The notes under the pieces: generated by a model
Told to the model about the DNA's origin: nothing
The model's database searches: none
Seen by the model: the letters and a program-made list of their open reading frames with translations, nothing else
Position numbers and translations under genes: made by a program
Sequence record: MH051913
Source: Enterobacteria phage vB_EcoM_IME281
DNA: 64,000 bases
Direction: 5' to 3' (one strand)
Shown: piece by piece, positions 35,452-49,728 of the stretch
How positions within the stretch are numbered: the stretch's first letter is position 1
Layout of the letters: the number at the start of each line of letters is the position of its first letter

Positions 35452-35906
35452 TGAAAACGGAAGATTTTGCTCAAGGTCTATACGTTGCTGCAAAATTCTC
35501 TGAATTGACTTTAGATGCGCTGGAAAATCTTCAGCGCACTTTAAAGGTTCCTAATCCGGTTCCTCGTGAAAAATTCCATTCTACAATCTGCTATTCAAGA
35601 GTCAACGTTCCATACACCGTTGCATCCGGAAGTTTTGAAGTTGCTTCGACAGGACATCTTGAAGTGTGGAAACATGGCGATTCTCCCGTCTTGGTACTGG
35701 TTCTCGATTCAGAGTATCTTAAATGCCGCCATCAGTATGCTCGTACCTTAGGTGCTACGCACGATTTCGATGATTATACCCCTCATATCACATTGTCTTA
35801 TAATGTAGGACCTCTTACCTTTAGTGGAGATGTCCGGATTCCTGTCGTTTTAGATAGAGAATATAAAGAACCCTTGAAGCTCGACTGGGCCGAGGATTTA
35901 AAATGA
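35451..35906 (+). CDS. 57B: 57B-like protein with two H-x-T/S-x motifs (2H phosphoesterase family)
   Basis: 151 aa; HSTI and HITL motifs; synteny. Confidence 0.6.
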
Positions 35907-36112
35907 AAACCTACAGCGAATTCTTAACAGAAGCAATGGAATCCGCCTCTTCGGTGGCAATAGAGGTTTCTTGTACTCCTGAAGAATTTAAAGAAAGCCT
36001 GAAAGGTATAAATTGGCTTTCAGGAGAGTTATCTAATGGGGTTGCCTACTTCTTCGGCCCTCAATCAGATATAGATAGCTGGGTCTCTGAAAATTCTTCA
36101 TGGCTAAAATAA
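35903..36112 (+). CDS. Small protein with N-terminal CTS-like sequence [11 protein letters not shown] (candidate internal protein)
   Basis: 69 aa; conserved MKTYxEF N-terminus shared by six ORFs. Confidence 0.55.
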
Positions 36113-36124
36113 TTTAAAAAAGGT

Positions 36125-36166
36125 GTTTACAAGGTCTATAGACATGATACTATAGGCCTATCAAAC
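36125..36166 (+). promoter_or_regulatory. PeSL-like early promoter cassette
   Basis: gtttacaaggtctatagacatgatactataggcctatcaa. Confidence 0.6.
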
Positions 36167-36190
36167 CAAACCAACCACATGGAAATCAAA

Positions 36191-36415
36191 ATGAAAACTT
36201 ATCAAGAATTTATTACAGAAGCTAAAAAACACGAAGACCAACTGCCGGTTGTTACAAAAACCTTTGACGGTACATTGGCCGATTTTAAAAAAGTCCCTAG
36301 TGATAGGCTCGCTAAATTGACCGGGAGTATCGGTGAAAAAGATGGCAAGGTCACGTTTTCTGCTCAAGGTACAGCCAATCTTAAAAAACTTTTGAAAGCC
36401 GCTGGCGCAGAATAA
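36191..36415 (+). CDS. CTS-bearing small protein (MKTYQEFITEAKK…)
   Basis: Start chosen at the MKTY methionine (alternative ATG at 36179). Confidence 0.55.
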   Translation: MKTYQEFITEAKKHEDQLPVVTKTFDGTLADFKKVPSDRLAKLTGSIGEKDGKVTFSAQGTANLKKLLKAAGAE

Positions 36416-36416
36416 A

Positions 36417-36689
36417 ATGAAAACTTATCAAGAATTTATCGCTGAATCTATTCTTAATGAGGAAGTAAAAATTAACAAATCTGTTAAGACTATGATTGAT
36501 GATATAAATCATCTCTATAACATTGATTTGACTAATCATGTAACTTTAGGCAATAAGCGAAACTTTTTTGTATTTGATACTTCAGAACTTGACCAGAATC
36601 AAATTAACAATATTGAACGTTTTGCTAATGAAAAAGGGTTGCGCCACGAGACGGCTGGTTATAAAAAGTATGCAATTTATTTAAAATAA
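36417..36689 (+). CDS. CTS-bearing small protein (MKTYQEFIAESIL…)
   Basis: 90 aa; conserved N-terminus. Confidence 0.55.
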   Translation: MKTYQEFIAESILNEEVKINKSVKTMIDDINHLYNIDLTNHVTLGNKRNFFVFDTSELDQNQINNIERFANEKGLRHETAGYKKYAIYLK

Positions 36690-36691
36690 TT

Positions 36692-36733
36692 GTTTACAAT
36701 GGGCTTTAGTGATGATACTATAGCCCTATCAAA
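36692..36733 (+). promoter_or_regulatory. PeSL-like early promoter cassette
   Basis: gtttacaatgggctttagtgatgatactatagccctatcaa. Confidence 0.6.
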
Positions 36734-36757
36734 ACAAATGAGTGATTGGAGAATAAA

Positions 36758-47326: not shown

Positions 47327-47559
47327 GCATTGCAATTTATATTAAATCTGAGTCATGTGATTCATATCTATATTCCTATGATACCGGAACATCAGAAGAG
47401 AAAATTAAAGAAGACTTAGAAAGCGATATGGATATGTTCTGTCCTATTGGTGACTATATGCTTCAAGTGTCTGATAGTGAAAGTCCATCATCAGAAAATA
47501 GACTTCAAATTATTATGCAAGATATTTTTAAACAATCATGGGAACGAGACGATGGGTAA
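47323..47559 (+). CDS. Small acidic hypothetical protein
   Basis: 78 aa; ATGA coupling. Confidence 0.45.
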   Translation: MSIAIYIKSESCDSYLYSYDTGTSEEKIKEDLESDMDMFCPIGDYMLQVSDSESPSSENRLQIIMQDIFKQSWERDDG

Positions 47560-48001
47560 GAAAGCTAAGGAATTATCGGCAGGTATTTTATTCATGACCG
47601 TTGATAAAGAACTGGTCATGGGCCGTGTAACAGGCTCTCGTAATCCAGAGAACATGCGTCATAAATGGGACATTCCTAAAGGTCATGTCGAACCAGGCGA
47701 AGAGCCTATTCAAGCGGCAATGCGTGAAACCGAAGAAGAGATTGGATTCACAGCATACGATCCTGCATTCCTGAAAGACCTAGGTGAGTTCAAATATTCA
47801 AGCAATAAGAATCTACATCTGTTCTTATATACAGTGCCTGTGGAACACGAGCAGTTCAAGGATTGCAAATGTACGGCTTACCATACGTTCCCTGATGGTC
47901 GTACTATTCCTGAATTCGATGCGTTCGCCTTGATTAAACGTCCGCAATGGGAATATGTCATGGGTAAGTCGATGTTTAAGGTTTTAGATTCGCTCTTTTG
48001 A
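47552..48001 (+). CDS. nudE: Nudix hydrolase
   Basis: Nudix box GHVEPGEEPIQAAMRETEEEIG; adjacent to e as in T4. Confidence 0.85.
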   Translation: MGKKAKELSAGILFMTVDKELVMGRVTGSRNPENMRHKWDIPKGHVEPGEEPIQAAMRETEEEIGFTAYDPAFLKDLGEFKYSSNKNLHLFLYTVPVEHEQFKDCKCTAYHTFPDGRTIPEFDAFALIKRPQWEYVMGKSMFKVLDSLF

Positions 48002-48031
48002 TATAAATACCTCCTATACTCAGGAGGTATT

Positions 48032-48526
48032 ATGGATATTTTTGATATGTTACGTCAAGACGAAGGTCTTGATTTAAATCTTTATAAAGACACTGAAGGT
48101 TATTGGACTATTGGTATTGGCCAGTTAGTTACCAAGAACCCATCTAAAGATGTTGCTCGTGCTGAACTTGATAAGCTTATGGGCCGAGTTTGTAATGGTC
48201 GTATTACTATGGCTGAAGCCGAACAACTCTTTAACCGATCGGTTGAAAATGCTCGTAGAGCTATTCTGCGTAATCCTAAATTGAAACCTGTTTACGATGT
48301 ATTGGACGAAGTTCGTCGTTGTGCTTTAATTAACATGGTCTTCCAAATGGGTGAAGCAGGTGTAGCAGGGTTCACTAACTCTTTACGTATGCTCCAACAG
48401 AAACGTTGGAACGATGCGGCAGTTAACCTGGCTCAATCCCGTTGGTATAAACAAACCCCTAATCGTGCTAAGCGCGTGATTTCAACATTTAAAACAGGTA
48501 CTTGGAAAGCATATGAAAACTTATAA
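48032..48526 (+). CDS. e: Endolysin (T4 lysozyme family)
   Basis: 164 aa; about 75% identical to recalled T4 lysozyme; Glu11, Asp20, Thr26 present. Confidence 0.95.
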
Positions 48527-48911
48527 TGAATTTATCGCAGAGAATGTAGTTCCTGCATCTAAAGAACTTCTGGCGATGTTTGAATCAGAAGAATTCACCG
48601 AAGAACTGAACGAGAACCTGACCCAGGCCACTCCTCAGGTTATTCGCGTTCGTAATGCCCTTCAGACTGGCATGCAGGCTCGTGTATCTAAGACTATGAA
48701 GCTGGCATTCACTACTTCTAAGAACGAAGACTATGGCGATGGTATCGCTATGAACACCGGACAGTATTATGTTGAGTGGAATGGCGAAACCGGTACTGCT
48801 AAGATTCGTCAGACACGTGCCGCTGGTGGCAAAATGCTGGACGTTAAATTGAACGTTAAAGAGAAAGACGTCGCAGCTTTGTTTAAGAATTGGATGAAAA
48901 CTTACAAATAA
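48513..48911 (+). CDS. CTS-bearing protein ([13 protein letters not shown]…), candidate internal protein
   Basis: 132 aa; adjacent to e as T4 ip genes are. Confidence 0.6.
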
Positions 48912-48960
48912 GTTTACTTCTCCTGTAGGCATGATACTATAGACCTATCAACTACAGGAG
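48912..48960 (+). promoter_or_regulatory. PeSL-like early promoter cassette with 9-bp stem ctcctgtag/ctacaggag
   Basis: gtttacttctcctgtaggcatgatactatagacctatcaactacaggag. Confidence 0.65.
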
Positions 48961-48969
48961 ATTAAAAAA

Positions 48970-49386
48970 ATGACTCGTATCAACCTTACCTTAGTATCTG
49001 AATTGGCTGACCAACACTTAATGGCTGAATATCGTGAATTACCACGTGTTTTCGGTGCAGTTCGTAAGCATGTTGCTAACGGTAAACGTGTTCGTGATTT
49101 TAAAATCAGTCCTACTTTTATCCTTGGCACAGGCCATGTTACATTCTTTTACGATAAGCTCGAATTTTTACGTAAGCGACAAATTGAGCTTATAGCCGAA
49201 TGTTTAAAACGTGGTTTTAATATCAAGGATACTACGGTCCAGGACATTAGTGATATTCCTCAGGAATTCCGTGGTGATTATGTTCCTCACGAAGCTTCTA
49301 TCGCTATTTCACAAGCCCGTTTAGACGAAAAAATTGCACAGCGCCCTACCTGGTACAAACATTATGGTAAGGCTATTTACGCTTAA
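48970..49386 (+). CDS. denV: Endonuclease V (pyrimidine-dimer DNA glycosylase)
   Basis: 138 aa; N-terminus [28 protein letters not shown]… matches recalled T4 DenV. Confidence 0.9.
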
Positions 49387-49428
49387 TTAAATCCGTGATA
49401 GAATACTTCTATCAACTTAAGGAATAAT

Positions 49429-49728
49429 ATGAAAACTTATCAAGAATTTATTACAGAAGCCAAAGCCCCTAAAGCATTTCAAATTGGAGTCCAAGGCACT
49501 TTAGACCAAGAATATGTTGACGCTATTGTAGCAAGCCTCGGTAAACAAGGTGTACAAGTGGATTTGGTTGATTTTACTAAAGGCAACACTTTTAATATTG
49601 TTACATCTAAAGGCTCTTTAGCTAAAGTTAAAAAGGCCTTTGGTGTAGCCCAAGCATACGAAATCGACCACTCTGAATTAGAAAATAAAGGTCGCCAGAA
49701 TACAATTAAAGGTTCTGGTTCTTTCTAA
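49429..49728 (+). CDS. CTS-bearing protein (MKTYQEFITEAKAP…), candidate internal protein
   Basis: 99 aa. Confidence 0.6.
   Translation: MKTYQEFITEAKAPKAFQIGVQGTLDQEYVDAIVASLGKQGVQVDLVDFTKGNTFNIVTSKGSLAKVKKAFGVAQAYEIDHSELENKGRQNTIKGSGSF

Follow-up and report, generated by a model that had tools for sequence, protein, structure and literature searches.

In bacteriophage T4, the first ten residues of the internal protein IPIII are sufficient for incorporation into the head, and mutagenesis of IPIII assigned targeting mainly to residues 4 and 7 and processing to residues 8 and 10 of this capsid-targeting sequence (CTS), the prohead protease gp21 cleaving after L/I-x-E (PMC9026906). GmrSD enzymes, which belong to the modification-dependent type IV restriction enzymes, are inhibited by the T4 internal proteins Ip1, Ip2, and Ip3, with a different GmrSD variant as the target of each (PMC12373910). 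Here, we analyze a stretch of 64,000 nucleotides (nt) from Enterobacteria phage vB_EcoM_IME281 (sequence record MH051913), which is called the window in the following and in which six dispersed open reading frames (ORFs), named by the position of their first nucleotide (35903, 36191, 36417, 39603, 48513, and 49429), begin with a leader resembling the T4 CTS. We consider it quite likely that these six ORFs are the internal protein (ip) genes of this phage, a Dhakavirus, and that their products would be packaged into the head, processed by gp21 and injected into the host cell together with the DNA.

A six-frame scan of the window for ORFs of at least 40 amino acids (aa) returned exactly six that start with MKTY, all of them on the + strand, and this bears out the initial annotation, which had described six genes with a common MKTY(Q/N/S)EF(I/L) start. 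The leader consensus of the six ORFs is MKTY[SQN]EF[LI]xE with variation confined to positions 5, 8 (L/I), and 9, and only approximately 1e-6 ORFs per window starting with MKTY.EF[LI].E are expected by chance, a figure derived from the residue frequencies of the 222 ATG-initiated ORFs of the window. If the leader pattern is relaxed, the extra matches are only known gp21 substrates, e.g., gp24 (MAKINELLRE/S; slashes mark cleavage sites, known or predicted). Past the leader, the six proteins diverge completely, as had been stated before: the mature parts (past residue 10) show no pairwise similarity and no similarity to T4 IPI, IPII, or IPIII that is detectable by blastp (all E > 0.09). At the nucleotide level, the first 30 nt of the six genes share a pairwise identity of 67-100%, those of 36191 and 49429 being identical, while the values amount to 22-40% for the next 60 nt and to 20-40% for the 30 nt upstream. 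The leader is conserved at the protein level, because synonymous codon differences occur inside it (ACC/ACT, TAC/TAT, TTC/TTT, GAA/GAG). The leader which the initial annotation gave for the T4 internal proteins, MKTYQEFIAE, is correct for IPII and IPIII, both of which start with MKTYQEFIAE/A; IPI starts with MKTFKEFTSTTTPVSTITE/A.

All residues which were mapped as functional in IPIII, i.e., Y4, F7, [LI]8, and E10, are present in the six ORFs. The residue following E10 is, in gene order, A, A, S, S, N, and A, so that A or S is found in five of six, and further [LI]xE sites are located at E15 in 36417 (LNE) and in 39603 and at E34 in 48513. The machinery that would recognize and process such leaders is encoded by the window as well (Table 1). 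The prohead protease gp21 is 89% identical to T4 gp21 and the scaffolding core protein gp22 is 77% identical to its T4 counterpart, the first 80 residues of gp22 being nearly identical to T4. The window also encodes gp67, gp68, gp20, gp23, and gp24, and the T4 cleavage sites are kept in gp24, in the form given above, and in gp23 (...FLTE/AEIGGDHGY). The functional residues in all six ORFs together with the genes for gp21 and gp22 support the earlier proposal that the leader is a T4-type CTS. Two gp24-like vertex protein genes lie next to each other in the window, and the propeptide-like N-termini of their products end in [LI]xE/S (MKKINALIQE/S and MAKINELLRE/S).

In terms of mechanism, the ten-residue leader would bind to the gp22-based scaffolding core during prohead assembly, by which the protein would become enclosed in the head, and gp21 would subsequently cleave past E10 at [LI]-x-E. 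In three of the proteins, gp21 would probably cut a second time, past E15 (36417 and 39603) or past E34 (48513). The mature protein would then remain among the packaged DNA and enter the cell with it at the next infection, where the six proteins would most likely act as dispensable counter-defense factors with a fast turnover; the larger basic 39603 protein could instead or additionally exert an IPIII-like role on DNA or in head assembly.

Table 1. Positions of the ip-like genes, the processing and scaffolding genes, promoter elements, and further features of the window (position 1 is the first letter of the window; pI, isoelectric point).
Feature	Position	Strand	Description	Predicted mature form
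CTS-ORF 1 (35903)	35903..36112	+	69 aa; first gene of ipI locus; phrog_23867	59 aa, pI 4.1
CTS-ORF 2 (36191)	36191..36415	+	74 aa; MKTYQEFITEA; ipI locus; phrog_8765 'internal virion protein'	64 aa, pI 9.6
CTS-ORF 3 (36417)	36417..36689	+	90 aa; MKTYQEFIAES; ipI locus; phrog_7673 'internal head protein'	
CTS-ORF 4 (39603)	39603..40220	+	205 aa; MKTYNEFLNES; between tRNA genes and e.8; phrog_2280	195 aa, 21.8 kDa, pI 9.66
CTS-ORF 5 (48513)	48513..48911	+	132 aa; overlaps e 3' end by 14 nt, precedes denV; phrog_15461	
CTS-ORF 6 (49429)	49429..49728	+	99 aa; MKTYQEFITEA; directly after denV; phrog_2667 'internal head protein'	9.5 kDa, pI 9.0
gp21 prohead protease	6081..6716	-	Pfam Peptidase_S77, E 6e-103	
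gp22 scaffolding core protein	5235..6050	-	Pfam T4_CASP, E 8e-90	
T4-type late promoter	39567..39574	+	TATAAATA, exact; 28 nt upstream of 39603 ATG	
Late promoter	48002..48009	+	TATAAATA, exact; upstream of gene e	
Early-type sigma-70-like promoter	36126..36153	+	TTTACA-N16-TACTAT with upstream TG; before 36191	
Early-promoter cassettes	3300, 36145, 36713, 40300, 45778, 48932, 51220, 55343, 58426, 59826	+	GTTTACA-N16/17-TGATACTATAGNCCTATCAAA	
57B	35451-35906	+	Pfam Acb1, E 1.5e-58	
Hairpin and T-run	39539-39566		GGCCC...GGGCC; precedes late promoter at 39567	
gp24-like vertex protein genes	672-1955 and 1956-3236	-	427 and 426 aa; adjacent	
Tandem small ORFs	42660-43902	+	five ORFs, 65-105 aa	

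The gene order of the window is that of T4, and the classical ip loci of T4 (57B-trna.4 and e-denV) hold five of the six genes. The interval from 57B to trna.4, which is the T4 ipI locus, is taken up by ORFs 35903, 36191, and 36417, a placement that the initial annotation overlooked. ORF 48513 between e and denV and ORF 49429 right after denV occupy the neighborhood of T4 ipII and ipIII, and the gene order thereby confirms that two of the six adjoin e and denV as the T4 ip genes do. ORF 39603 lies elsewhere, at a position without a T4 ip gene. The start of 36191 deserves a comment, as the ORF in the mechanical sense begins at the ATG at 36179 (MEIKMKTY...), while the annotation of the relatives begins at the MKTY ATG. 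The ATG of 35903 overlaps with the stop codon of 57B (ATGA), and 57B is assigned by Pfam to Acb1, an anti-CBASS nuclease; by virtue of this overlap the anti-CBASS gene and the cassettes of the ipI locus can be regarded as one counter-defense cluster.

The promoters differ between the six genes. The late promoter that had been ascribed to 39603 is real and matches TATAAATA exactly; it is preceded by a hairpin and a T-run, and in the phages JS98 and AnYang the same late-promoter arrangement is found 36 nt upstream of the 39603 homologue. ORF 48513 would be co-transcribed from the late promoter of gene e, because the two genes overlap. The early-type promoter before 36191 has the architecture that is also seen in the region upstream of T4 ipI. 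Moreover, an early-promoter/leader cassette occurs in 10 copies in the window compared to 0.01 expected, and several of the copies directly bracket ip genes, with one in front of 36191 and others behind 36417, 39603, and 48513. Recombination cassettes termed PeSL were described for the phages RB49 and phi1 (PMC2839356), and the PeSL-like early-promoter cassettes of the window could mediate the exchange of gene cassettes that is seen among its relatives.

This exchange is evident from a comparison of phages in which the interval from 57B to vs.8 was scanned for CTS-ORFs. The ip region of the window is approximately 97% identical to that of the Escherichia phages JS98 and UP19 (Dhakavirus, Tevenvirinae). 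T4 contains three CTS-ORFs (ipI, ipII, and ipIII), JS10 five, JS98 and the window phage six each, and AnYang eight. The combinations differ: true ipIII and ipII homologues occur in JS98, JS10, and AnYang and are absent from the window, JS10 lacks a 39603 homologue, and AnYang lacks a 35903 homologue. Six genes are thus an ordinary number, since the relatives carry five to eight, and to speak of a large repertoire, as the initial annotation did, overstated the case. The set of CTS genes behaves as exchangeable cassettes, and its variable presence in close relatives is what is expected of dispensable ip genes. The homologue of 35903 in JS98, JS10, and UP19 uses a GTG start and begins with (M)KSYKEFLTE. 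Two further CTS genes absent from the window were observed in these relatives, i.e., a gene of 97 aa in the ipI locus of JS98 and JS10 (MKTYQEFIKES...; positions 16793-17086 of the JS98 stretch compared), which is unannotated in RefSeq, and a gene of 119 aa in AnYang (positions 31022-31381 of the stretch compared; MKTYQEFITEST...), which is annotated as 'hypothetical'; both are candidates for additional unlabelled Ip families. An Ip10 homologue was found in JS09 and PG7.

Three of the six genes (36191, 36417, and 49429) already bear a label as internal head or virion protein, via PHROGs or RefSeq families, and the IME08 orthologue of 36417 is named Ip9 in UniRef, while 49429 is the counterpart of JS98 orf112. 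The families of 35903, 39603, and 48513 are listed as 'unknown function' or 'hypothetical protein' in all records examined, including those of a large protein collection, and they are found in 27, 137, and 48 phage records, respectively. PHROGs gives membership and no function for these three families, and scans of all six proteins with Pfam and NCBIfam yielded no match above threshold. An Ip name for the three families was found in none of the records examined, and a match to the set of Ip4-Ip12 from 1994 is possible.

ORF 39603 is the counterpart of JS98 orf135. Six phages from six further genera (Mosigvirus, Winklervirus, Tegunavirus, Marfavirus, Karamvirus, and Kanagawavirus) carry homologues in the same syntenic location, and the leaders of these homologues keep the form of the CTS (MYTFNEFLAE, MLKFKEF-ISE, MLQYNEFLKE, and MLNFKEFITE). 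Homologue sets collected from a large protein database were shallow, comprising 16 proteins for 39603 and 17 for 48513. Among the aligned homologues of 39603, E15 of the second [IL]xE site is invariant, which suggests a two-step processing as in T4 IPI. In the AlphaFold2 model of 39603 (confidence score pLDDT 70.7), residues 20-72 and residues 112-205 each form a helical domain, and the part between them (residues 73-110) is a disordered linker rich in Pro, Ala, and Lys; Foldseek searches with this model retrieved nothing below E = 1 from the PDB, only generic helical hairpins, and only members of its own family from BFVD. In the 48513 family, the aligned homologues share an invariant MKTY.EFI.E and an invariant L32-N-E34/N35, while residues 11-30 are variable or deleted, from which we infer a propeptide of 34 residues. 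The AlphaFold2 model of 48513 is disordered up to residue 37 and, with a pLDDT of 56.4, is too weak for a fold search.

The leader is not restricted to this group of phages. In the IMG/VR collection, the exact pattern MKTY.EF[LIM].E was found in at least 118 stretches, where approximately 1 to 10 chance matches would be expected according to an estimate made by hand from the motif and the residue frequencies. Among the matches listed, 125 of 131 leaders are placed at the start of an ORF, A or S follows E10 in 90 of the 131 although the pattern leaves this position unconstrained, and the 114 unique ORFs fall into at least 63 clusters of unrelated mature parts. The largest cluster among them contains 25 ORFs starting with MKTY[KQ]EFM[QL]E/SSLSR, and all five members tested pass the threshold of the Pfam family S-AdoMet_lyase (PF23780); this assignment as S-adenosylmethionine (SAM) lyase comes from the Pfam profile alone, as phmmer retrieved no PDB sequence with the SAM-lyase-like protein of the cyanophages. 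The SAM lyase family is present in the T4-like cyanomyoviruses P-TIM68 (positions 6001-6495 of the stretch compared), S-H34, S-N03, and S-CREM2 (region 238-9732 of the stretch compared). In virions of S-CREM2, a distant T4-like phage, mass spectrometry detected the SAM hydrolase, which is a homologue of these SAM lyases with a related leader, as well as a kinase, a Cas9-like nuclease, and small unknown proteins (PMC10665884). The N-termini of these non-structural proteins detected in S-CREM2 virions read MKDFDSFLEE...SLEE/SSLSR, MKDLHSFLTE, (V)KRFDAFLTE, and MNFSEFNES, while neighboring gene products undetected in virions do not show a leader-like start. PMC10665884 was not among the results when full texts were searched for 'capsid targeting sequence' together with 'cyanophage'. 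The S-CREM2 data suggest that injected enzymes are addressed by a T4-type tag, and they lend indirect support, the only one from virions, to the packaging proposed for the six proteins. That the three unlabelled families are new internal proteins with new targets, and that MK-x-[YF]-x-x-F-[LIM]-x-E serves as a cargo tag throughout the T4 superfamily, is quite possible, and we put it forward tentatively, as something short of probable. If so, injected effectors could be found across the T4 superfamily by a simple N-terminal search, and a tagged SAM lyase would imply that SAM is destroyed pre-emptively at the time of DNA entry. If the census holds, it would provide a cheap way of listing injected effectors, enzymes included, in T4-like phages from any environment.

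Several observations weigh against the assignment of all six ORFs as packaged and injected counter-defense proteins. No virion proteomics for IME281, JS98, or any Dhakavirus was found in the literature searched. In the 48513 protein, E10 is followed by N and not by A or S. With its small size and acidic pI, the 35903 product differs from the basic T4 internal proteins and might be lost from the head. An exact late promoter is owned by 39603 only and is available to 48513 via e, while the other ip-like genes have an early-type promoter (36191) or are coupled to upstream genes. As to function, family and fold searches revealed no resemblance of the mature parts to Ip1-3 or any characterized protein, and an anti-defense role, although it fits the precedent of T4 Ip1-3, is therefore proposed by analogy only. 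Dhakavirus is reported to have the gene for the synthesis of hydroxymethylcytosine (hmC) but is missing from the groups for which glycosyltransferases are known (PMC8056088), so that GmrSD enzymes specific for glucosyl-hmC may not be the target; the relevant nucleases may be hmC-directed instead. The promoter argument carries little weight, because the T4 ip genes look alike: the promoters of ipI, ipII, and ipIII are likewise of the early type, and none of these genes has an exact TATAAATA within 150 nt. A late promoter as a requirement for packaging was accordingly rejected.

Alternatively, only some of the six proteins might be packaged, and especially 35903, 36191, and 36417 might encode cytoplasmic early proteins, whose leader would be a relic of cassette recombination via the conserved 5' end. 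The identity of the first 30 nt of 36191 and 49429 would suit such a recombination, conserved early-promoter cassettes bracket the ip genes, and the translation of 35903, whose product is acidic, is coupled to that of the early anti-CBASS gene 57B. A relic leader should decay, however, yet every family, with distant homologues included, retains Y4, F7, [LI]8, and E10, the counterpart of 35903 in JS98, with its GTG start and KSYKEFLTE, still has these residues, and T4 ipI, the product of which is proven to be packaged, shares the early-type promoter architecture, all of which makes this explanation improbable. It is more improbable still, to the point of being hardly credible, that the six N-termini are alike for reasons unrelated to capsid targeting, such as simple paralogy or a constraint from mRNA structure or translation initiation. 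All six genes share ATGAAAAC at their start, which speaks for this reading, but upstream of the start, ribosome-binding sites included, they are unrelated (20-40% identity), the conservation tracks the amino acids through synonymous changes, the conserved positions match the residues mapped experimentally for targeting and cleavage, and A/S is enriched after E10 also in the independent IMG/VR sample.

A different question is what the packaged proteins would do. They might, above all 39603, serve in head assembly or in the condensation or ejection of DNA, as proposed for IPIII, and not in the inhibition of host defense. The predicted mature 39603 protein mirrors T4 IPIII* (183 aa, 20.4 kDa, pI 9.65) in size and pI (Table 1), it possesses the Lys/Pro/Ala-rich disordered linker, and its gene, which is equipped with a late promoter, stays in the same syntenic place across seven phage genera; polyheads accumulate in T4 IPIII mutants (PMC9026906). 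The window phage contains 39603 and lacks ipIII, and JS10 contains ipIII and lacks 39603, but JS98 and AnYang carry both ipIII and a 39603 homologue, so that these genes are no strict alternatives, and 39603 as a replacement of ipIII was rejected as a strict rule. In addition, T4 Ip3 itself inhibits a GmrSD enzyme (PMC12373910), which shows that structural and anti-defense roles are compatible. We regard a purely structural function of these proteins as rather unlikely, while an IPIII-like role of 39603 in head assembly or on DNA is a live alternative. For the set as a whole, packaged counter-defense proteins remain our preferred interpretation, and because T4 Ip1-3 are specific inhibitors of type IV restriction, each new Ip family would be a candidate inhibitor of an unknown defense variant.

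Apart from the ip genes, the window contains five tandem small ORFs with C-termini of the type W-[VFY]-[SP]-S-S-x-x-C (...WVSSSAMC, ...WVSSSSEC, ...WVSSSYEC, ...FWFSSSMSC, and ...IWYPSSC), i.e., a tandem array of paralogs in which a cysteine-terminal motif is conserved.

The closest known system is that of T4. The six proteins share the leader of T4 IPII and IPIII, the phage encodes the same protease and scaffold and uses the same loci, and like the T4 internal proteins the products are small, dispensable, and mostly basic. Two families of the window seem to have longer propeptides with two sites, resembling the 19-residue leader of T4 IPI. The set differs from that of T4 in that its mature parts bear no relation to IPI, IPII, or IPIII, one gene (39603) is placed outside of the T4 ip loci, and homologues of ipII and ipIII are missing. 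The polymorphic ip loci of T-even phages (Ip4-Ip12; Repoila et al., 1994), as they are presented in the papers citing this work (PMC3012670; PMC12373910), represent the same phenomenon, in which unrelated ORFs with only the CTS in common replace one another. Diverse CTS-tagged internal proteins are known since 1994, and our finding is therefore an expected T-even feature and the idea behind it is not new; what is new is limited to the families of 35903, 39603, and 48513, for which the label 'hypothetical' can be replaced by that of candidate internal (injected) proteins, together with a prediction of their cleavage sites. More distant parallels are the Dar proteins of phage P1 and the ejection proteins of phiKZ and SPN3US, which are packaged into the head and delivered with the DNA against host defenses and many of which are cut after glutamate by a gp21-like protease (PMC9026906). 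These differ from the proteins of the window in that they do not have a common short MKTY-type tag, follow other pathways of incorporation, and constitute a much larger cargo. Finally, the ip loci resemble anti-CRISPR and anti-defense hotspots, as unrelated small genes turn over at fixed positions in nearly identical phages; unlike the products of such hotspots, however, those of the window would be pre-made and delivered by the virion, and they are recognizable by a common tag and not by position alone.

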